A stretch of 42,021 bases of DNA from a virus (IMGVR_UViG_2703718855_000003:1-42021); one strand, 5' to 3'. Shown: positions 17,118 through 26,262, numbered from the stretch's first letter. Program-made: numbers and translations. Notes: generated from the sequence alone by a model not told the origin.

Positions 17118-18314
17118 TTATGCGTATTCCCGGCGTTTGTCCGGCGACTCCTCCACCAGCTCCTGCCATGTCGCGGTAAATTCACGTCGCCACTGGTAAA
17201 ACGTGGTTTTATAGTCATCAGTTATGATGTCCGGGTAATCATTTTTCAGCGACTGATAAAATTCCTCGTTCCAGGCGATGTACTGCACCAGGCGTTCGAA
17301 ATAATCCATCACAGGTTCAATCTGCTGGCGTACACCATCGATATACTGGCTGATAGCTTTCGAATCCTCAGTTCCTTCACCGAAACCATTCGAGAAAGCC
17401 TCCTCCTTGATGAGAATCGCGGGAACATCGCTACCTGATGCAATATCGGAAATAATGTTGTCGCGGGCGGCATTTAGCGCGCCATCGATGTTTTGTAAAT
17501 TCAGCGAGGTAACGTCCTCATCCTTCCCGATACTAAGCACACCTTTATTTTTTGCCTCTTTAACATTTTCCCTTTTTCGTCCCGTGGCGGCAGCCATGAT
17601 CCCGTCAAGTTTCGAACCATACTGCACAACTTTAGCCACCAGTACGCCTGCCTTCTGGCTGACGAGATCATTCGCCTCCATCGTATTGATATAGGATTTC
17701 AGGGAATAAAGAACGCGCTGAAACACGCTTCGCCCGGTGAATCCGAACGATGAACTCTGAAACTCCAGATAAATCGGTGTGCCATTGAAAATTTTCAGTG
17801 TGCGTGACGGATGCCAGTCTTTTCCGCCAATCTTCAGCTTTTTATTGGCTTCCTGGAAAAACGGGCTGTTTGGGTTCTGGTCAGTCACCATCGAACCAGA
17901 AGCGTTCAACGGGTCCCACGCGTTGATATACACATCATCTTCTGTCAGTCCGAATGTCGGAAGCGGCTCACGACATGGAACACTGTCGGTGCCCACGCCG
18001 ATCGCTGCGGCACCGTAGCAACGAGACAGAAAAAACAGATTTTTAATCTTCTCGTTAACCTTCATACGTTCCCATACCTCCTGGAAACGCCGCACAACCC
18101 GCTCGTCAGGGTCTGTCTCCACGTTGTACTGACGCGGCTTACACATCGCCATAAGTATGGGTTTTTCGACAAGTTTTCCGCCCAGAGGATGGAATTGCCA
18201 CAGCTGCTTACACAATTCATAGCCAATGTCGGTTCCCGGCTGAATTTCTTCAGCCTCAAGAATATGCATCAGTGCTGAACCGAGGCCGCCAGTAATCTCG
18301 ATCTCTGCCATCAA
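17118..18314 (-). CDS. Major head-module protein (portal or major capsid; not resolved)
   Basis: 398 aa directly downstream of the large terminase; followed by a terminator-like hairpin. Confidence 0.45.
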   Translation of the reverse strand: MMAEIEITGGLGSALMHILEAEEIQPGTDIGYELCKQLWQFHPLGGKLVEKPILMAMCKPRQYNVETDPDERVVRRFQEVWERMKVNEKIKNLFFLSRCYGAAAIGVGTDSVPCREPLPTFGLTEDDVYINAWDPLNASGSMVTDQNPNSPFFQEANKKLKIGGKDWHPSRTLKIFNGTPIYLEFQSSSFGFTGRSVFQRVLYSLKSYINTMEANDLVSQKAGVLVAKVVQYGSKLDGIMAAATGRKRENVKEAKNKGVLSIGKDEDVTSLNLQNIDGALNAARDNIISDIASGSDVPAILIKEEAFSNGFGEGTEDSKAISQYIDGVRQQIEPVMDYFERLVQYIAWNEEFYQSLKNDYPDIITDDYKTTFYQWRREFTATWQELVEESPDKRREYA

Positions 18315-18329
18315 AAATATCCTGATTTT

Positions 18330-19658
18330 TTACAACGCCGCGTAATTACCGTGCGCGATAATCAATCCATAGGTATAACAATCGAAAAGGTCATCAGCAC
18401 GTTTATGTGCGTCTTTGTCTGCCAGGTGGAACCCGGCGATTTGTTTAATGAGGTGGTTTGCGGTGGTACGTTTGAATGAAACGGTCTTGTCGTAAGCCTC
18501 CCGGGCGATTTTGCACATCCCCTGATAGTGGTAGCTGGATGCCATCACCGCCCGTTCGTCTTTACCTTTGCTGGTTAGTGCCGATTTAATCGGCGTCATA
18601 TCCCAGCCTTCGGTTTCCGCCTTCTGGTTGAGGATTGCCCCCATCGCGGCGTCTTCCATAAAAATTCCCTGGCAGCCCAAACGCGGACGGCATAATTTCG
18701 CGAGGCGCTCGAGGTTTTCATAAACGCCGGGGATATATTCAGGAAGCAATGACGCTTTAATTTGCGTCACATCCCAGTCAATAATCGTCAGTTTTGGCTC
18801 GTCCGAATACGTTGACTCATAAGCGAAATACACCACGCCAGTACCATCATTTTCGGTCCCGCCTTTCAGCGCCGTATCCATCACTGCGAAAATCATGTCG
18901 CAGTACGGCGGCATCTCAATTGGCTGACCGTCCACCAGCAGCTTATCGACATCGAGTAACGCGTCTTTGGACCAGTCCACGAACTCGGCAAGATATTCCT
19001 GCTGCCAAACGCGCGGATCGGATTTCTTCTCCGTTTCCTCCAGTTCTTCTTTCGGAATGTACGGATTCGATGAAGTTGGCGCATGGTGCATGACAAATCC
19101 CAGGGATTCATCGTGGCATATCGCGTAGAAAAAATTGCTCTCGTCGATACCGTTTGGTGTGGAAAATACCCACGCACAGCCACGGTAATCAACAAGCGTC
19201 GGGCGTATAGCGCGGGGCCAGATTTCCTCGAGCATTTCCGGCGATTTAGTGAATGCGGCCTCATCAATCAGCACAGCGTGATATTTACGCCCACGCCCGG
19301 CCAGTTTGTTATTGTCCGTTACCCAAAAGTCGATGCGCCCCCCATTACGGAGAATAATGCGCTTTTCATTTTTTGACTGGCTGAGGATCAGCGGTTGCAG
19401 AACGGCGCTAATTTCATCCCAGATTTCCTGGTACTGTCGGTATTGTGCGGTAAAAATCCCCACCCTACCCGCGATAAGCTGCCCGGTGGTAGGAACGGCA
19501 AATTTCCGCGTCGCGAAACTGGTAGCGATGTTCACCAGCATCACCGTTTTACCCCAGCGACGACCACAGCATACCGCGTGGAAGCGTTCCTCTATTGCCG
19601 CCGTCCATGCAGCTATTTGCCCCTCATGAGGTTTTGGGAGGTAGATTTCAATCGACAT
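18330..19658 (-). CDS. Terminase large subunit
   Basis: 442 aa; Walker A-like CCGRRWGKT, Walker B-like HAVLIDEAAF, then FSTPNG and acidic residues in the C-terminal half consistent with the nuclease domain. Confidence 0.8.
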   Translation of the reverse strand: MSIEIYLPKPHEGQIAAWTAAIEERFHAVCCGRRWGKTVMLVNIATSFATRKFAVPTTGQLIAGRVGIFTAQYRQYQEIWDEISAVLQPLILSQSKNEKRIILRNGGRIDFWVTDNNKLAGRGRKYHAVLIDEAAFTKSPEMLEEIWPRAIRPTLVDYRGCAWVFSTPNGIDESNFFYAICHDESLGFVMHHAPTSSNPYIPKEELEETEKKSDPRVWQQEYLAEFVDWSKDALLDVDKLLVDGQPIEMPPYCDMIFAVMDTALKGGTENDGTGVVYFAYESTYSDEPKLTIIDWDVTQIKASLLPEYIPGVYENLERLAKLCRPRLGCQGIFMEDAAMGAILNQKAETEGWDMTPIKSALTSKGKDERAVMASSYHYQGMCKIAREAYDKTVSFKRTTANHLIKQIAGFHLADKDAHKRADDLFDCYTYGLIIAHGNYAAL

Positions 19659-20739
19659 TATCCACTCCCGGCATCGGCAGAGAGTTGTGGATAATTATTT
19701 CGTTATTCTCACCACCCACACCTTTTTTGAGGTTTTCAATCTCAGTGCGCAGCTTTTCGTTGCGAAGCCTCAGTCCTTCAAGCTCCAGATCATTGCGACT
19801 GTCAGTTGCACCACCAGCAGAACTTCCTTTCGTCGCCGTTATCAGCTTGATAAGTTCGCGCCGGGCGGCAGCCTTATCCTCCAGCAGGATCTCAACGCCG
19901 AATTTTCCGAGCTTTGCCCCTGCATATAATTGCCGCGCATCCCCATCAAGCAGAGCGGTATCAGCCATATAAAGCTGTCCCATTCCCTCACCGCAGCACT
20001 TCGGGCAGTCCAGATTGGGTATGGCGTTATCAACAAAGCCAAGGCCTCCATATTCCGGCTCGGGTTTGCCATCTCTGGAGGCCTGTGCCGCTGCCTTATC
20101 GAATTCTGCAATATCACGCCACTGGTAGAGGTGATTCTCGCCCCAGCAATAACGGCAGTTAACACGGCGAAATTGTGCCAACTGATTGGGGTCGGCCTGG
20201 ACAATGGCCATCAACTGACTCACCAGTAAATCCAGGTCTGCGGTATAGCGTTTCTGATACTGATTGCGGAAGTAGCTGATAGCACGATAAACCCTGGCAT
20301 TTCTAAGCATACGGCTGGCGTTGCTGTTAGCTGTCGCACCTTGCCCCTCATAACCAGCCAGTCGGTATGCCTCTGTCGGCTTTTTCCCCTGAGCAACAAG
20401 CATCGCAAACTTAGCCTGCTGGTCAGAAATGCCGAATTCATCGGGGCAGAACGAAAATTCCTCCGCGTCGCCCTCATTCAGGCACGCATCGGATACTGGC
20501 TTTTTTTTCTGAGATTTTCCGTTCCGCTTTTGCGCAGTCTGCGCAGATTTTTTCTGCGCACTTTGTTGCGCAGTTTTGCGCATTTCTGTCTGCGCATTTT
20601 TCGGAGGTTTTTTGATGTAACGACGGGCTGTTGCGTAATTCAGTCCCCTTGCCTCACACCATGCCACCGGGGATACACCGGAGCGGGTGTATTCAGCAAT
20701 ATATTCCTGCTGCAACGCCCCCCAGTCCGGTCTGCTCAT
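19648..20739 (-). CDS. Terminase small subunit-like DNA-binding protein
   Basis: 363 aa; N-terminal helix-turn-helix-like region, long Lys/Gln/Ala-rich linker, Cys-rich C-terminal region (CRYCWGE...CPKCCGEG); overlaps the large terminase start. Confidence 0.5.
   Translation of the reverse strand: MSRPDWGALQQEYIAEYTRSGVSPVAWCEARGLNYATARRYIKKPPKNAQTEMRKTAQQSAQKKSAQTAQKRNGKSQKKKPVSDACLNEGDAEEFSFCPDEFGISDQQAKFAMLVAQGKKPTEAYRLAGYEGQGATANSNASRMLRNARVYRAISYFRNQYQKRYTADLDLLVSQLMAIVQADPNQLAQFRRVNCRYCWGENHLYQWRDIAEFDKAAAQASRDGKPEPEYGGLGFVDNAIPNLDCPKCCGEGMGQLYMADTALLDGDARQLYAGAKLGKFGVEILLEDKAAARRELIKLITATKGSSAGGATDSRNDLELEGLRLRNEKLRTEIENLKKGVGGENNEIIIHNSLPMPGVDNVD
20531..20596. repeat. Array of six TGCGCA hexamers (candidate terminase recognition / pac-type site) inside the small-terminase gene
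   Basis: TGCGCA at 20531, 20540, 20555, 20567, 20577, 20591, each flanked by T-runs. Confidence 0.5.
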
Positions 20740-20742
20740 TAG

Positions 20743-20994
20743 TTAGTCCTGATTTTTATCCACCCTGAGTAGTTCACGCAGGGCAAAGGCATCCCCTTTT
20801 CTGGCAAGCTTAAACAATGCCGCCCGTAGTTCGGCTTCACCTTTCGCTCTGCCCTTACGGATGGATGCGTAAAAATCTGTCATTGCTTCCCGATTTTCTT
20901 TCAGTCGGTTCAGATCAACATCCAGAACGTCAGCGATTTGTTGTGCAGTCATCCGGCACGCTGCCAGAGACTCTACTTTCGAATACGGAATCAT
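20743..20994 (-). CDS. Small helix-turn-helix protein upstream of terminase
   Basis: 83 aa; ATG at 20994 preceded by GGGGGTGA; overlaps the 3' end of the upstream gene by 65 nt. Confidence 0.4.
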   Translation of the reverse strand: MIPYSKVESLAACRMTAQQIADVLDVDLNRLKENREAMTDFYASIRKGRAKGEAELRAALFKLARKGDAFALRELLRVDKNQD

Positions 20995-21862
20995 TTGTCA
21001 CCCCCATTGATATGCAGGGTGTCTTCTTCCTGTATTTTTCGTGAAGGATTTTTACTGCAGCGTTGTTCCAGGTGACCTGATGGTGAATGCGTTTATGGCT
21101 GGCACCCATCAGTGAGATTTTTACGCACGACGGCGCATACATGACGGAGTAAAAACTTTTAACGTAGGTTCCGGAGTCCAGATACAGCTCGGTCATTCCG
21201 CCGCTGTTTTTCTGCGTCTGTTTCTGCCCTAACTGGACAGCACCGATCGTCATAAACAATTCACCACAGCGACCAAGATTCGTATACGTATTCACATCCT
21301 CGTTAATGCGCCCCATGAATGAGAACGGTCGATCAACGGAACAGATAAAACTGTTCATTGCCTTGCGTTTCACCCACGAAGCATGGCCGCCATTGTCACC
21401 AAGAAAATCTCCGCCCTGCGACATAGCGATGGAAAGCGCAGGTATTGATTCGTAGTACGCCAGCATTTCAGAAAGGATCGCATCCAGTTTTCTTATCGGG
21501 AAATAGGCCTGGTCATAGTTGCGATCCACCCGAAACTGGAACTCGTGATAATCATCATCGAGCTGAATGAAGTATTTACACCCGACCAGTTTTGCCAGGT
21601 CGAAACAGGCATTACGGGCGTAAAAAATTGATCGGCGGTCACCGAAATTATCGGCTTCGTCAAAACGACTGGCGATATCGGCTTTGGAAAACACCAGCAC
21701 CTGTTCACTAAATTCAGCTATGTAGTGATGCCGTGTATTATCTTCATCATCAACAACGATAAAAATTTTCCCGGTATAGCCAGCACGACGCAACGTCCGG
21801 TAAGTCAGAACTTTGTCCGGTCGCCCGTGAGTCAGAATAAAGGCGCAAAAATCATCACGCAT
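20930..21862 (-). CDS. GT-A-fold glycosyltransferase-like protein (function unknown; candidate modification enzyme)
   Basis: Track ORF 20930..21883; the ATG at 21862 has a GGAGGAGGAGG Shine-Dalgarno and overlaps the ParB-like stop (ATGCGTGA). N-terminus FILTHGRPDKV...KIFIVVDDEDNT and later QLDDDY resemble the GT-A/GT2 pattern. No transmembrane segment. Confidence 0.5.
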   Translation of the reverse strand: MRDDFCAFILTHGRPDKVLTYRTLRRAGYTGKIFIVVDDEDNTRHHYIAEFSEQVLVFSKADIASRFDEADNFGDRRSIFYARNACFDLAKLVGCKYFIQLDDDYHEFQFRVDRNYDQAYFPIRKLDAILSEMLAYYESIPALSIAMSQGGDFLGDNGGHASWVKRKAMNSFICSVDRPFSFMGRINEDVNTYTNLGRCGELFMTIGAVQLGQKQTQKNSGGMTELYLDSGTYVKSFYSVMYAPSCVKISLMGASHKRIHHQVTWNNAAVKILHEKYRKKTPCISMGVTNDSVFESRVSGSVPDDCTTNR

Positions 21863-22646
21863 ATTCCTCCTCCTCCCCGCCATGCATGATCTCCACCATA
21901 CGCTGCGTCATCCGGACAAATCCATTTTCAATAGCCTGCTGATAATCAATGATCACCAGCGCCGATTCCTCGAAAAAGCACTGAATTTCAGCGGGGGCGT
22001 GAGCGTAATAGTCCGCAATTCTGCTGAAATTAAACACCGTATGACGTTCTGCCGCACACAGGAGGAATTTCTCAATATCAGGATCAAGGGACGCCGAACG
22101 TATCCGGCTGATCAACTCCTGAGTTTTCGTATCGTCGTACAGTTCACTGATATCTGGTTTATCGCCCGACGGCTCATAAACAGGCGTATCAATTTTCGTC
22201 GTGTACGGTTCCTCCTCATTTCCTGTACCGGGCAAAACATCCGTCAACAGTTCATCAATTTCTGTCGGGCTGAATCCTGTCAGGGAGATATCAAAATCAG
22301 CATTGATTAGGTCCGACAGCTCCATCCGTAACAGATCTTCATCCCAGCCAGCATTCATCGGCAGGCGATTATCTGCCAGGCGGTACGCCTTTTTCTGATC
22401 ATCCGTCAGACCAGACAGAACAATAACCGGAACCGAATCCATTTTGAGCGCCTCAGCCGCCATAACGCGACCGTGACCAGCAATAATTTCGCCCTTTTCA
22501 TCAATCAGCACTGGATTAGTCCAGCCGAATTGCTTAATGCTTTCTACCAGTTGTGCCACCTGCTCAGGGCTGTGTGTCCTGGCATTGTGTGCATACGGAG
22601 ACAGTTCTTGTAACGGGCGATAGACGATCTTCAATTTCTCGCTCAT
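21855..22646 (-). CDS. ParB-like nuclease domain protein
   Basis: 263 aa; ...NPVLIDEKGEIIAGHGRVMAAEALKMDSVPVIV... matches the ParB/Srx N-terminal domain core; GAGG ribosome-binding site. Confidence 0.7.
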   Translation of the reverse strand: MSEKLKIVYRPLQELSPYAHNARTHSPEQVAQLVESIKQFGWTNPVLIDEKGEIIAGHGRVMAAEALKMDSVPVIVLSGLTDDQKKAYRLADNRLPMNAGWDEDLLRMELSDLINADFDISLTGFSPTEIDELLTDVLPGTGNEEEPYTTKIDTPVYEPSGDKPDISELYDDTKTQELISRIRSASLDPDIEKFLLCAAERHTVFNFSRIADYYAHAPAEIQCFFEESALVIIDYQQAIENGFVRMTQRMVEIMHGGEEEEYA

Positions 22647-22769: not shown

Positions 22770-22877
22770 TTACTCACGAATCAAACGAGCATGCTGACCA
22801 CTCATTTCAATGCGTAAGTATTGTGGCTTGCCGTCAATCAACGCGGTGATTAACTTGTCACCTGTAGGTTTCCACAT
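22770..22877 (-). CDS. Small ORF (35 aa) with strong ribosome-binding site
   Basis: AGGAGA 5-6 nt upstream of ATG at 22877; encodes MWKPTGDKLITALIDGKPQYLRIEMSGQHARLIRE; below the ORF-track size cutoff. Confidence 0.3.
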   Translation of the reverse strand: MWKPTGDKLITALIDGKPQYLRIEMSGQHARLIRE

Positions 22878-23050: not shown

Positions 23051-23233
23051 TCAGTTCTGCATACACTGCCGAACACCATCAATAAGCTGACAGACCTGAG
23101 ACGCGGTATCGAAAAGCTGGCGCGCCTTATCCAGGCTAACGCATCCCACCAATAAAAAAGGCACCAGTATCGCTACCAGTGCCCATTTCGCCGCTGTTCG
23201 CGGCGTTCTGTGTGTCCAGTGTTTTCTGCTCAT
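23051..23233 (-). CDS. Lipoprotein, possible outer-membrane spanin component
   Basis: ATG at 23233 with AGGTG upstream; 60 aa MSRKHWTHRTPRTAAKWALVAILVPFLLVGCVSL... with basic N-region, hydrophobic core and LVGC lipobox; directly follows the endolysin. Confidence 0.45.
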   Translation of the reverse strand: MSRKHWTHRTPRTAAKWALVAILVPFLLVGCVSLDKARQLFDTASQVCQLIDGVRQCMQN

Positions 23234-23247
23234 AACACACCTGGTTA

Positions 23248-23625
23248 TCAGCGTTTCAACTGAAAGTGAGGTCCGTCTTTCAGTGTTTTCCAGTCCCCGC
23301 CCCATTCGATGGCAGTTCCCAGCTCTGCGGCAGCCTGCTTAAATGCCTGCGCGATTTTCTCGTACAGAGGCCAGTCCCATGACACCTGGCTACCAATGTA
23401 GGCAACAACATCCACCGCATCACCTGTCAGGTGGCGGCTGTTCATGGTCTGGCTCTTGCCTTCTGCAACCAGCTGTTTCTGGCGATACTTACTGCGCAGG
23501 CCTTCCGTAATACCGAAATCAACCTCCGTCAGCTCCAGCGCACGGCGAACGACAGCAACCAGCTGTGGTTTGACGCCCTCCAGATTTTTTTCACTGCGAC
23601 GGCTGAATCTGAATTTACCCGACAT
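23248..23625 (-). CDS. Endolysin, peptidase M15-type (L-alanyl-D-glutamate peptidase family)
   Basis: ATG at 23625 with GAGGTGA upstream; pattern FRFSRRSEKNLEGVKPQLVAVVRRALEL...SRHLTGDAVD...WGGDW matches T5-type endolysins as I recall them. Confidence 0.8.
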   Translation of the reverse strand: MSGKFRFSRRSEKNLEGVKPQLVAVVRRALELTEVDFGITEGLRSKYRQKQLVAEGKSQTMNSRHLTGDAVDVVAYIGSQVSWDWPLYEKIAQAFKQAAAELGTAIEWGGDWKTLKDGPHFQLKR

Positions 23626-23627
23626 AT

Positions 23628-23903
23628 TCACCTCAACAATGGAAAGATTTTTGTGACGTTCCCGCGTGCGCGTATTACCAGCACACAGAACAACAGATTA
23701 AAAAACACTTCCAGCCAGCCCATTGCTAACGGACGACCACACAGATAGCTGAGTGGCGCAAAGGCATAAAGCAGCATCAACAGCCAGGCCAGCCATGACA
23801 TCAGCGGTTTATGTCTGGAATCACGACGACGGTAAAAAAAGAGCGTCAGTACGATAACCGTGCATAACGCCACATTCAGCAATCCGGGAAGGTTACCTGA
23901 CAT
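23628..23903 (-). CDS. Small polytopic membrane protein (holin/antiholin candidate)
   Basis: ATG at 23903 with GGAGGAGG upstream (alternative in-frame ATG at 23918); about 3 hydrophobic segments; coupled to endolysin start. Confidence 0.45.
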   Translation of the reverse strand: MSGNLPGLLNVALCTVIVLTLFFYRRRDSRHKPLMSWLAWLLMLLYAFAPLSYLCGRPLAMGWLEVFFNLLFCVLVIRARGNVTKIFPLLR

Positions 23904-24285
23904 TGCCGCCTCCTCCATCCCGCAGGCGGGAGAACAGGCCGGATACCAGTGATGCAATATCCTGCTGGTGGATGAACGACAGAATCTTCACCGAAATCAC
24001 CGATACCAGTACCGCGCAAAGCGCGTCGAGAGATGTGCTGTGTAGCCCCAGTTTTTCGACCAGATAAGACGCCATGACATCCGCCCCCAGCACGCCAACG
24101 ATAAACGACACCAGAAAATGCGCCGCCACACGCCAGACAGAAATCTGCTGGGGTATCGTCGCCACAAACAACGCCCCGGCGAATGCACCAAACACAATCC
24201 CGAAATCCGTTCCGGTAAACAGTCCAAATACCGTCGCCCCACCGAGCGCCGCAGCCGTACCGGAACCGGATAAGGGTTCAGACAT
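23893..24285 (-). CDS. Holin-like membrane protein
   Basis: ATG at 24285 with GGGAGG upstream; 131 aa with several Gly/Ala-rich hydrophobic helices; first gene after the upstream terminator. Confidence 0.5.
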   Translation of the reverse strand: MSEPLSGSGTAAALGGATVFGLFTGTDFGIVFGAFAGALFVATIPQQISVWRVAAHFLVSFIVGVLGADVMASYLVEKLGLHSTSLDALCAVLVSVISVKILSFIHQQDIASLVSGLFSRLRDGGGGNVR

Positions 24286-24300
24286 GCTTTTTCCTCCCAC

Positions 24301-24326
24301 AAATAAAAAAGGGCCGCCAGCGGCCC
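24301..24326 (-). terminator. Intrinsic terminator immediately upstream of the lysis genes (tR'-like)
   Basis: Minus-sense GGGCCGCTGGCGGCCC hairpin followed by TTTTTTATTT, about 16 nt before the holin ribosome-binding site. Confidence 0.45.
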
Positions 24327-24409
24327 GTAAAAACACCCTGTCAAAGGCACCCGCAGATGCCTTTTGTGTGGTGTTATCTGATGTGATGTGCGCCGGGCGT
24401 GGCGCGGAT

Positions 24410-24728: not shown

Positions 24729-24803
<75 letters not shown>

Positions 24804-25090
24804 ATACTGTGCTGGCCCCCGGAATAACACGAATTACCAAGAGAGCCCGCACTGGTCTTTCCGGTGGCAAACAGCACCCCTGCTAACATAAAAGATAAAC
24901 ACCTTCCAGACGCAAAAATACTAACAACTGTTTTTCAGATATCCAAAATATATTTGGTTTTTATTTTTGAAAATATGTATACATATGTATCATAAATATA
25001 CAAGCCATATCATAACCGAATTAAAAATCTTTAGTTATCTCTTTTGCCGTCTGATCACCACCCACCGGCAGCTGAGAATTCCGGCACACA

Positions 25091-25153
25091 ATGAAAAAGG
25101 CCCGCCAGGGCGAGCCATAAAAACTGAATAAAAAAACCGCCCGGGGCGGCGGC
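25091..25153 (-). repeat. Copy 2 of the 65-bp direct repeat / terminator (downstream of the degenerate tRNA-like sequence)
   Basis: ATGAAAAAGGCCCGCCAGGGCGAGCCATAAAAACTGAATAAAAAAACCGCCCGGGGCGGCGG; minus-sense hairpin followed by a T-run. Confidence 0.6.
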
Positions 25154-25519
25154 TAAAACGATAAAAGGACACAATATTATAATGATTATTGGGTTTGGGG
25201 CATCGGGTGCCTCCCGAAGTATTCCACTTTACGTGGATACTGTGGTTTCCCGCTAAACCGACTCTATAAACCACCCTCGCACTGAGGAACGCCCCAATTC
25301 ATGTTTTCCGACACAGAGATGGCGCATCACTGGTTACTCCACGCTAAATCCTGCTTCCTTTCGTGGGCAATGCGCCATTTCTGTGTCATAAAAAATACAG
25401 CACTGAGTCTGTAACCGATCTCCATTACAGAATGAGGGACGATAAAGGTATTAAAGAGATCTGTTCCTCACGAAAACCGCCAGTGCTGTAAAAACTTGTC
25501 CAAAAAACAATGAAGTTGC

Positions 25520-25590
25520 GGAGAACAGGAATCGAACCGGCATTACCAACCTAAGGCTGATGTAATAACCACTATACGATACCTGCATAT
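25520..25590 (-). pseudogene. Degenerate tRNA-like sequence (decayed copy sharing the D-arm and T-loop of the tRNA-Gly scaffold)
   Basis: Reverse complement GCAGGTATCGTATAGTGGTTATTACATCAGCCTTAGGTTGGTAATGCCGGTTCGATTCCTG... shares the D-arm and T-loop with the tRNA-Gly at 24729-24803, but acceptor and anticodon stems do not pair. Confidence 0.4.
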
Positions 25591-26107
25591 AGAGCAGGCC
25601 TCCGTAACCACAATAATGACACTGATACCGATAACAGCCCTTCATTATGATTAAACGGATGCCAGCAATGACCCGCAAGACAGCGGGTAACACCCCTGTG
25701 AACAGAAACTTGCTGCCTTTCGGGTCGAGAGTAATATTACCGATAATTTATATGACATCAAAAACTAATTAGTTTTCATATTTAAACATATGTATAAATA
25801 TGTATCAGACGCATACAATTTATGTTATTTCATCCAGACTTCTGATTTCTCACAGGAAATTGCGAAAAAAAACAACATAAAAATGAACAAATTGGGAGTA
25901 CGCTAACTCCGTTGTCGCAATAAATCACAGTAAGCTCTTCAGAAATAACAGTTCACAAGACTTACATCAACAGTAGTTTTTGTAATGATTAATGTTAACT
26001 GTAGCGTTGAAAAGAAAAGTTTTGACGAAATATGGTGAACTAACAGAGCCTAACGAATAGCCCTATTACGCCGAGCTAATAGCGCTGCCAGCTAAACTTG
26101 CATGGAA

Positions 26108-26184
26108 TGGTCCGCCACCGAGGACTCGAACCTCGCACAATCAACTTAGAAGGTTGATGCTCTATCCCGATGAGCTAGTGGCGG
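26108..26184 (-). tRNA. tRNA-Arg (anticodon UCU)
   Basis: 77-nt cloverleaf: acceptor CCGCCAC/GTGGCGG, D-arm GCTC-ATCGGGATA-GAGC, anticodon arm TCAAC-CTTCTAA-GTTGA, T-arm CGAGG-TTCGAGT-CCTCG, encoded CCA. Confidence 0.85.
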
Positions 26185-26186
26185 AA

Positions 26187-26262
26187 TGGTGGCCCTTGCT
26201 GGATTTGAACCAGCGACCTGGCGATTATGAGTCGCTCGCTCTCACCACTGAGCTAAAGGGCC
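26187..26262 (-). tRNA. tRNA with CAU anticodon (tRNA-Ile2/ileX-like; Met not excluded)
   Basis: 76-nt cloverleaf GGCCCTT...AAGGGCC-A-CCA, anticodon loop CTCATAA; closely resembles E. coli ileX as recalled; 2 nt upstream of the tRNA-Arg. Confidence 0.85.

Follow-up and report, generated by a model that had tools for sequence, protein, structure and literature searches.

The stretch considered here, IMGVR_UViG_2703718855_000003:1-42021, is 42,021 nucleotides (nt) of viral DNA (the window, in what follows, is this whole stretch). Our subject is a pair of genes on its (-) strand: one for a ParB/Srx-like protein (21855..22646, 263 aa) and, directly downstream, one for a GT-A glycosyltransferase (GT) of the TAGT (TET-associated glycosyltransferase) family (20930..21862, 310 aa; ATG at 21862), which PGAP labels 'GREB1-related protein'. 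An upstream in-frame ATG would lengthen the latter open reading frame (ORF) to 317 aa. The genes meet at a junction (21855..21878, (-)) composed of a purine-rich Shine-Dalgarno run and a stop/start overlap, ATGCGTGA. The TGA stop of the ParB gene (21857..21855) lies inside ATGCGTGA (21862..21855), which makes an 8-nt overlap with the TAGT start, and the purine run GGGGAGGAGGAGGAA (21878..21864) that precedes the overlap has GGAGG cores 3 and 6 nt from the TAGT ATG. We infer from this arrangement that the two genes are translationally coupled; the tight coupling claimed in a first-pass annotation of this DNA is borne out by the overlap and its GGAGG cores, and also by the recurrence of such an overlap in eight lineages. 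We propose, with moderate confidence, that the pair is a two-protein DNA-glycosylation module of a temperate phage, in which a DNA-tethered TAGT enzyme would modify phage DNA before it is packaged.

The 310-aa protein matches the Pfam model PF20691 (TAGT) with 117.5 bits against a cutoff of 27.5 (E=1e-33), its residues 8-222 corresponding to model positions 4-205 of 205; its homologues also carry PF20691. It matches PHROG 842 with E=1e-101, and modelling predicts a GT-A (nucleotide-diphospho-sugar transferase) fold. The glycosyltransferase-like nature suspected in the first-pass annotation thus holds up when structure and profiles are consulted. The same annotation had proposed a modification module of a type that could not be placed; family and context do point to DNA modification expressed with the late genes, but the enzyme can be placed, in the named TAGT/GREB1-related family. 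Of the two motifs that had been singled out in it, both present as described, IFIVVDDEDNT (aa 32-42) turns out not to be the telling one, since its DDED (aa 38-41) is not conserved across the family, whereas QLDDDY (aa 100-105) is, and holds the invariant metal-binding DxD (D102-D104). In 12 sequences, with a haloarchaeal virus and a T4-like phage among the sources besides E. coli, R14, D68, R83, D102-D103(-D104), D189, K235 and H260-H261 are invariant; R14, D102-D104 and E188-D189 are invariant or nearly so in the 12 diverse and 44 closer sequences taken together. The catalytic signature R...DDD...ED(Y/F) is intact (its DDD is encoded at 21551..21559), and R...DDD...ED is the motif reported for DNA-modifying phage GT-As and for JGT (bioRxiv 10.1101/2023.12.21.572611). 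On sequence grounds, then, the 310-aa protein is a TAGT-family GT-A sugar-nucleotide transferase of the GREB1/JGT/T2-T6 family with its catalytic residues in place. Between the E. coli enzyme and those of Lactobacillus, Nocardia and haloarchaeal viruses identity is 42-47%, which, for such unrelated hosts, fits a universal substrate such as DNA.

A sequence search of solved structures gave no match for the TAGT protein; neither NCBIfam nor PADLOC has a model covering it or the C-terminal domain (CTD) of its partner, and the ParB-TAGT pair is not among the known defence systems in PADLOC. Neither protein has a membrane segment, the maximum Kyte-Doolittle value over 19 residues being only 1.08-1.24, and [DNS]PP[YFW], SGGxDS, P-loop and SAM (S-adenosylmethionine) GxGxG motifs are absent from both, so that motif scan and hydropathy agree with the earlier statement that the pair lacks methyltransferase and PP-loop motifs and membrane segments. 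Surface-glycan glycosyltransferases of the Gtr or TarP type are not a match, for the enzyme has neither a hydrophobic segment nor Gtr-like neighbours, and sits in a late block with no promoter-like site. The functional name 'beta-glucosyl-HMC-alpha-glucosyltransferase', used by PHROGs and in RefSeq phage records, was considered for it and rejected: identity to T4-like members is 23-26%, and neither the window nor the Lactobacillus phage c5, which has the same pair, contains genes for 5-hydroxymethylcytosine (5hmC) or for an alpha- or beta-GT.

The 263-aa protein is a member of the ParB/Srx (ParB-CTPase fold) superfamily by sequence and fold. The Pfam ParB_N match is just above threshold (28.8 bits; cutoff 26.3), that to PHROG 620 is strong (1.7e-90), phmmer against the PDB retrieves Spo0J/ParB, and Foldseek retrieves Noc, ParB-CDP/CTPgS, PadC and KorB (E 7e-7). 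The AlphaFold2 (AF2) model divides it into a nucleotide-binding domain (NBD, aa 1-95), helices (aa 103-134), a disordered acidic linker (aa 136-165) and a helical CTD (aa 166-255). In the window, the NBD (taken as aa 1-100) and helical segment (aa 101-135) are encoded at 22242..22646 (-), with AF2 confidence (pLDDT) of ~73-92 over aa 1-95; the helical CTD (aa 166-263; FLLxAAERHTVFNFxxIADYYAH...SALVIID) is encoded at 21858..22151 (-). Between them, alignment of 12 diverse partners brings out a linear motif, YTTKIDTPVYEP (aa 148-159, 22170..22205 (-)), in which Y157 and E158 are invariant; YTTKIDTPVYEP sits within the predicted disordered linker, pLDDT falling below 50 across aa 136-161. When the protein is aligned with Spo0J/ParB (canonical boxes: the box I arginine, GERR in box II and ENxxR in box III), the box I arginine is R23 (HNARTH), box III is ADN (N93) and box II is the GHGR already pointed out in the first-pass annotation (aa 57-60, 22467..22478 (-)), with R60 kept and Glu replaced by His. 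N21, G57 and N93 are invariant among diverse partners. The N-terminal half also resembles the N-terminus of ParB-methyltransferase fusions (aa 10-144, PADLOC MTase_II, 1e-38; aa 3-141, PHROG 498 'DNA methyltransferase', 9e-52). A partition ParB (ParABS) was considered and rejected: neither Pfam nor the AF2 model gives the protein a helix-turn-helix (HTH), the prophage has no ParA, there are no parS-like repeat arrays nearby, and the TIGR00180 score is 37 bits, the cutoff being 58.

The constant partner of this TAGT clade is not the ParB domain, but the C-terminal module, that is to say the YTxKIxxPxYEP motif together with the helical CTD. When residues 140-263 of the partner alone were used in a tblastn search, 28 phage records were found, all from phages that also have TAGT matches (adjacency of CTD and TAGT was inspected directly in annotated phage loci). 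In 191-kb Vibrio phages the partner is a 139-aa protein with no ParB domain, and the YTxKIxxPxYEP motif is found in CTD-only partners also. In 78 further IMG/VR loci, TAGT is immediately preceded by a CTD ORF at 76 and has one within 1 kb upstream at 77 (the exception has 2 nt of upstream sequence); 46 of these partners are ParB-fused and at least 25 are CTD-only (~131 aa), with no NBD-like ORF near the CTD-only partners in those loci. At E<=1e-3 the CTD family comprises 1,191 representative clusters (50% identity), the CTD being C-terminal in nearly all of the 150 matches listed, and no Pfam or NCBIfam model covers it.

The two kinds of partner keep different company: ParB-fused partners precede the small and large terminase subunit genes (TerS and TerL), and CTD-only partners lie amid replication and recombination genes (ERF, YqaJ, DnaB-like, PDDEXK). 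The CTD-only proteins start MKQxN[LM]F, and Qxx[LM]F is found in 22 of 27 unique ones (6 of 9 clusters at 70% identity), as against 3 of 1,059 background ORFs. The beta-clamp-binding consensus is QL[S/D]LF, and UmuC has QLNLF (PMC3716654); judged by sequence, the QxNLF of the CTD-only partners looks like a beta-clamp-binding motif. Other arrangements occur. At one locus (L258 3370..4671) a 433-aa partner has a Lys/Arg-rich N-terminal tail and two tandem ParB NBDs ahead of the CTD, and TAGT overlaps it by 8 nt; in two IMG/VR loci (L143, L153) an ORF of 255-282 aa (cluster c70) separates a CTD-only partner from TAGT.

The pair is widespread. At least 80% of its 1.7 kb is present at 90% identity or more in 889 of 5,426 complete E. 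coli genomes, and 1,565 of them hold some part of it. The ynaK gene of the K-12 Rac prophage (87 aa) is a remnant of the 5' 254 nt of the ParB gene at 91% identity (L257 3991..4254; window 22393..22646), which is why PGAP calls the intact ParB gene a ynaK pseudogene in a 100%-identical strain. Outside E. coli, the pair is found in Pantoea prophages, soil and other metagenomic phages, Lactobacillus phages c5 and phi jlb1, Nocardia phage NTR1, haloarchaeal virus HHTV-2 and, at 27% identity, Porphyromonas phage 005b. ParB lies directly upstream of TAGT in all 87 close IMG/VR and genome loci (a set of 88, less L006, which is too short upstream). Wherever a locus extends far enough upstream, a ParB-type or CTD-only ORF occurs no more than 1 kb 5' of TAGT, and this holds for ~150 diverse loci and the 87 close ones; co-occurrence, whose analysis across prophages was named in the first-pass annotation as a check on the pair, is thus strict. 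The stop/start overlap, of 4-29 nt, is present in all eight independent lineages in which it was looked for, with Pantoea, metagenomic, Lactobacillus, Nocardia, Porphyromonas and Haloarcula virus loci among them.

Across 73 diverse loci, the TAGT and ParB clusters each appear at 71, the next most frequent being a TerL cluster at 42. The gene 3' of TAGT is a small TerS-type ORF drawn from at least 10 unrelated clusters (GP3_package, Terminase_2, Terminase_4 and HTH/Myb types among them), and it is followed by TerL of several families. Since the order ParB-TAGT-TerS-TerL is nearly always kept while the TerS and TerL families differ, the two-gene unit has moved between packaging modules, retaining its position at their head; some pair loci do not adjoin packaging genes. 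Both genes are under strong purifying selection (dN/dS 0.08-0.15; 0.08-0.10 for the partner gene), and the copies in the window are 95-100% identical to those in apparently complete prophages and induced phages.

Variants of the locus deserve mention in their own right. In many E. coli assemblies TAGT or ParB is truncated and fused in frame to tail-fibre, tail-tube, Caudo_TAP or Ail/Lom segments (P0023, P0036, P0041, P0042, P0045, P0209, P0212, P0214 and P0237 are examples); these look like deletion junctions of decaying Rac-like prophages. TAGT is C-terminally fused to a class-I SAM methyltransferase-like domain (VDLGCGLG) in one variant, and in others two tandem TAGT paralogues follow one partner gene (L222 4929..6596; L003 2207..3938; L203 and L223 for these fusion and tandem variants); tandem copies suggest further tailoring or a second sugar. 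A Pantoea prophage (L009 4017..6599) has an MptE-like gene (a faint match), a 485-aa Glycos_transf_2 gene (also faint) and a 215-aa ORF between its lysis genes and the pair, and these three extra genes may have additional glycan-building functions.

The window is a Rac-type lambdoid prophage adjoining ttcA in E. coli, and its segment 19000-24000 matches strain VG48B2 at 100% identity. As the first-pass annotation had it, the pair lies between lysis and packaging genes. On the 5' side are two holins, an M15 endolysin and a spanin-like ORF (23051..24336); on the 3' side, in order, are an 83-aa ORF that resembles part of the small terminase subunit, then TerS, TerL and the portal gene. The 83-aa ORF (20743..20994, (-); PHROG 309 'terminase small subunit', 1.7e-22) is overlapped by a ~22-aa C-terminal extension of TAGT and lies between TAGT and TerS in 78 of 88 related loci, at 54-100% identity; of the remaining 10, some end too soon after TAGT and the others carry another terminase module. 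TerS (19648..20739, (-)) and TerL (18330..19658, (-)) form a block (18330..20739) identified by matches to Pfam Terminase_2 and PHROG 51 and by PGAP annotation.

Between the spanin-like ORF and the ParB gene there is a gap of some 400 nt. The sole ORF in this gap is one of 35 aa (MWKPTGDKLITALIDGKPQYLRIEMSGQHARLIRE; 22771..22876, (-)), and neither a promoter-like site nor a canonical terminator was found in it; a terminator-like hairpin upstream of the ParB gene was dropped as non-canonical. A search around the pair for parS-like repeats, promoters and terminators gave nothing above chance, and an Rfam search matched only transfer RNAs (tRNAs). These tRNAs form a cluster between the Q-region and the lysis genes (24731..26262, (-), and 25517..25586, (-)): Gly-TCC, Arg-TCT and a tRNA with a CAT anticodon (Met according to ARAGORN, Ile according to PGAP), with a marginal fourth tRNA-like match in Rfam (31.8 bits) that is absent from the ARAGORN calls. 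Further downstream, comparison with an intact relative (L001) shows a clean 3,975-bp deletion with its junction at 17127-17128, which has taken the portal C-terminus, Mu-F-like and DUF2213 head-morphogenesis genes and the major capsid gene; this prophage is therefore unable to make heads. The truncated portal gene lies at 17118..18314 (-), its intact counterpart in L001 at 17877..19313. PGAP labels it 'anti-CBASS protein Acb1 family protein'; as Pfam calls it Phage_portal_3, the Acb1 label is probably an annotation artefact. Lone in the baseplate and tail cluster, and moron-like, is a gene (5641..6816, (-)) for a 391-aa protein with HSDR_N domains ('type I restriction endonuclease' in PGAP), for which PADLOC gave no match.

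In the mechanism that we propose for DNA glycosylation by the pair, the upstream protein would be a dedicated adaptor of the TAGT enzyme. Its YEP peptide and CTD would hold or activate the enzyme and its ParB NBD, once dimerised, would put the enzyme on double-stranded DNA, by analogy with the ParB-activated thymine dioxygenases; in CTD-only relatives the beta-clamp-binding-like peptide would place the complex on DNA. These alternative tethers favour DNA as the target, given the replication and recombination genes around the CTD-only partners, their clamp-like motif and the Lys/Arg-rich tail of the partner with two NBDs. Both proteins would be made together, through translational coupling, as the first products of the packaging block and, since the pair would be expressed at the head of that block, the sugar would be added to phage DNA after its replication, immediately before packaging or in the course of it. 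What the phage would probably gain is evasion of restriction or of other nucleic-acid-targeting defences in the next host. That ParB proteins direct modification enzymes to DNA at packaging is a proposal of Aravind and co-workers, as relayed in PMC8256090. Domains of the ParB fold bind CTP, ATP or GTP, and phage methyltransferases often have such a domain fused to them (PMC12704722); relatives of the enzyme that have been characterised as acting on DNA are that of T2/T6 (PMC13216743), the TET-associated GTs (PMC8256090) and JGT.

The closest parallel for the partner is ParB176. The dioxygenase 5mYOX176 needs ParB176 on double-stranded DNA, and one subclass of ParB activates phage thymine dioxygenases; predicted structures place the enzyme between the NBD and the CTD, where partition ParBs have their DNA-binding domain (PMC13229309). 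ParB176 and the partner in the window are alike in architecture (NBD, helices, disordered linker and CTD, with no DNA-binding domain, beside a modifying enzyme), and 5mYOX176/ParB176 genes frequently adjoin terminases, as the pair does here. However, the client of ParB176 is an Fe/2OG (2-oxoglutarate) dioxygenase, not a glycosyltransferase, and the GTs in those systems are tied to the ParB-independent subclass (PMC13229309). The ParB-DNA methyltransferase fusions (PMC12704722), which are prophage-enriched, have N-terminal 140 residues homologous to the partner; their enzyme is covalently attached, whereas in the window it is an adaptor domain to which the ParB module is fused, the enzyme being the product of a separate, overlapping gene.

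For the enzyme, the TET/JBP-associated phage GTs are the nearest kin: they share Pfam PF20691, the GT-A fold and R...DDD...ED with the TAGT of the window, their genes are often near ParB and terminase genes, and they act post-replication (PMC8256090; bioRxiv 10.1101/2023.12.21.572611). Their clusters have a methyltransferase and/or a 5mYOX, making 5hmC or 5-hydroxymethyluracil (5hmU), and none was found here or in the ~150 related loci; conversely, it is the TAGT of the window, unlike the TET/JBP-associated GTs, that has a dedicated, translationally coupled partner. The T2/T6 beta-glucosyl-HMC-alpha-glucosyltransferase belongs to the same family (PHROG 842) and is a GT-A acting on phage DNA with uridine diphosphate (UDP)-sugar (PMC13216743), but its acceptor is alpha-glucosyl-5hmC, to which it attaches a second glucose, and its phages make 5hmdCTP and possess an alpha-GT. 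T4-like members of the family are only ~23-26% identical to the TAGT of the window, have N-terminal extensions and lack a ParB/CTD partner. JGT and GREB1 belong to the same branch of the GT-A superfamily (PMC7968844); JGT needs 5hmU made by JBP, GREB1 forms one domain within a protein of 1,949 aa and has a protein as its substrate, and neither has a ParB/CTD partner. A precedent for the clamp is the T4 alpha-GT, a DNA glycosyltransferase bound to the gp45 sliding clamp (PMC13216743), with which the QxNLF of the CTD-only relatives may be compared. The T4 enzyme has a GT-B fold, binds the clamp directly and needs 5hmC; in the TAGT clade, clamp binding is suggested by the motif, and in relatives, not in the protein encoded in the window.

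Several considerations weigh against DNA as the substrate, and the foremost is the acceptor. The characterised DNA-acting relatives all need a hydroxymethyl-pyrimidine, or a sugar already on one (PMC13216743; bioRxiv 10.1101/2023.12.21.572611). No TET/JBP, hydroxymethylase or first-sugar GT was found in the window (by annotation and a Pfam scan of its unassigned ORFs), and no acceptor-making enzyme in phage c5, the genome of which is complete (31.8 kb); none of the unassigned ORFs of c5 exceeds 208 aa, and they give no dioxygenase match in Pfam. The recurrent neighbours in the ~150 loci include none either: acceptor-making families are absent from the top 25 of a Pfam census of 233 neighbour-cluster representatives, there is no TET_JBP in the loci that carry a C5 methyltransferase, and one strong ThyA match (E=1.9e-124) and one ThyX match are confined to single loci. 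We know of no GT-A that acts on unmodified DNA. Contigs with a GT and without 5mYOX/ThyS have been rated 'less likely' DNA hypermodifiers (bioRxiv 10.1101/2023.12.21.572611). Of the enzyme itself, aa 220-310, the acceptor-side third, is poorly modelled. Of the partner, the first-pass description as a 'ParB-like DNA-binding' protein survives as to the ParB nucleotide-binding domain and not as to DNA binding: it has no HTH or other recognisable DNA-binding domain and is strongly acidic (net about -26). The box II arginine, R60, is lost in the NTR1 and Porphyromonas partners and mutants of ParB176 in the NTP site still work (PMC13229309); clamp-like gating by NTP is accordingly unproven. Lastly, the clamp reading of the CTD-only partners rests on one short motif.

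What the neighbouring genes do offer is a frequent association with DNA modification (C5 methyltransferase, Dam, N6_N4 methyltransferase, Mom, PAPS-reductase/DUF3440), as well as sugar-nucleotide enzymes (epimerase, GDP-mannose dehydratase), occasional second TAGT copies and one TAGT-methyltransferase fusion. Since the phage lacks an enzyme that makes 5-hydroxymethyl-pyrimidine, the sugar, if DNA is the target, must go to an unmodified position of the DNA or to a group that some unrecognised source supplies. The bolder form of our proposal, that the CTD-adaptor/TAGT pair puts sugar directly on unmodified DNA through interchangeable tethers, a ParB module before packaging and the host beta clamp in replication, is conceivable, but we regard it as doubtful.

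The alternative that fares best, though we think it unlikely, is that a protein, not DNA, is glycosylated. In its most specific form the acceptor would be the invariant PxYEP tyrosine of the partner itself, primed in the manner of glycogenin; other forms would put the sugar on a protein of the packaging machinery or the virion, or on a host protein that is bound to DNA and to which the ParB domain or the clamp motif gives access. A protein target would explain the missing hydroxylase, and one member of the family, GREB1, does glycosylate a protein (PMC7968844), which also tells against DNA as the target. As TerS and TerL families vary between loci and some loci are away from packaging genes, there is no conserved external viral protein to serve as target, and the 42-47% identity that holds between the enzymes of bacterial and archaeal viruses tells against a host protein. 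Elsewhere, moreover, the ParB module is attached to enzymes that act on DNA, and a conserved motif in a disordered linker more commonly serves for docking than as a substrate.

Next, and also improbable in our estimation, is the classical TAGT role, in which sugar is added to 5hmC or 5hmU, or to the sugar that they bear, with the substrate supplied from elsewhere: by an unrecognised non-TET phage hydroxylase, or in the DNA of a superinfecting phage, so that the pair would be a prophage exclusion function. All biochemically characterised phage relatives need such an acceptor, thousands of 5mYOX-like contigs escape the TET_JBP Pfam model (PMC13229309), anti-phage hypermodification by prophage GTs has been raised as an idea (bioRxiv 10.1101/2023.12.21.572611), and every genome examined has several unannotated ORFs. 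Yet no third gene family recurs with the pair in the ~150 loci, c5 has no unassigned ORF of 5mYOX size (~290 aa), and the T4-like second-sugar enzymes, to which identity is ~26%, have no such partner. Nor does an exclusion function sit well with a pair that lies in a late block with no promoter-like site upstream; expression in the lysogen against invaders is unlikely, because the pair is also found in the virulent phage c5.

It is highly improbable that the two genes have separate mundane roles, the ParB protein as a packaging, partition or nuclease accessory and the GT as a lysogenic-conversion enzyme of surface glycans, since overlap and strict co-occurrence hold across phyla, the CTD is seen only with TAGT (in the 28 phage records), there is no membrane segment, GtrA/GtrB-type partner, ParA, parS-like repeat or HTH, and the same pair serves Gram-negative, Gram-positive and archaeal viruses with unrelated envelopes. 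We give equally little credence to the pair being a functionless passenger of a decaying prophage in this strain only: the prophage has indeed lost 3,975 bp with its capsid and scaffold genes and portal C-terminus, and many E. coli genomes keep remnants only (ynaK, or TAGT truncated at ~aa 231), but here both ORFs are intact and lack none of the invariant residues, purifying selection acts on the family, and copies in apparently complete prophages and induced phages are 95-100% identical.

A 2013 paper by Iyer and Aravind reportedly defined TAGT and was the first to link it with ParB. A TAGT clade with a dedicated CTD adaptor, interchangeable ParB or clamp-motif tethers and no precursor pathway was not found described in the literature consulted, although that 2013 paper may anticipate parts of this. 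Nor did a literature search turn up any account of modified DNA in c5, HHTV-2 or Rac-like phages, or of pairs of ParB with a glycosyltransferase. The placement of ParB beside phage DNA-hypermodification enzymes and terminases is already published (PMC8256090, PMC13229309, bioRxiv 10.1101/2023.12.21.572611). So is the abundance of solitary enzymes: a solitary TAGT of undefined function was counted in 288 of 753 phages (PMC13216743), and solitary GTs made up ~65% of GT contigs, their function being left open (bioRxiv 10.1101/2023.12.21.572611). For one large clade of TAGT, the enzyme is not in fact solitary: it is always accompanied by a small adaptor module, known in over 1,000 sequence clusters, and this module is joined to a ParB domain in some cases and to a clamp-binding-like peptide in others.

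Sugar-modified DNA is a main phage route past restriction, CRISPR and glycosylase-type defences, and it confounds sequencing and predictions of host range in phage therapy. If DNA is indeed the target, then a new acceptor chemistry or an unrecognised hydroxylating activity must exist, and the principle of ParB as activator would extend from dioxygenases and methyltransferases to glycosyltransferases. Should the target instead be a protein, the pair would constitute a widespread phage protein-glycosylation system, which would also be new. The question is tractable in E. coli with two genes. Should glycosylation of DNA be direct, it would amount to a new DNA-glycosylation chemistry, which about one-sixth of E. 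coli genomes would encode, as would viruses infecting haloarchaea and no fewer than four bacterial phyla.

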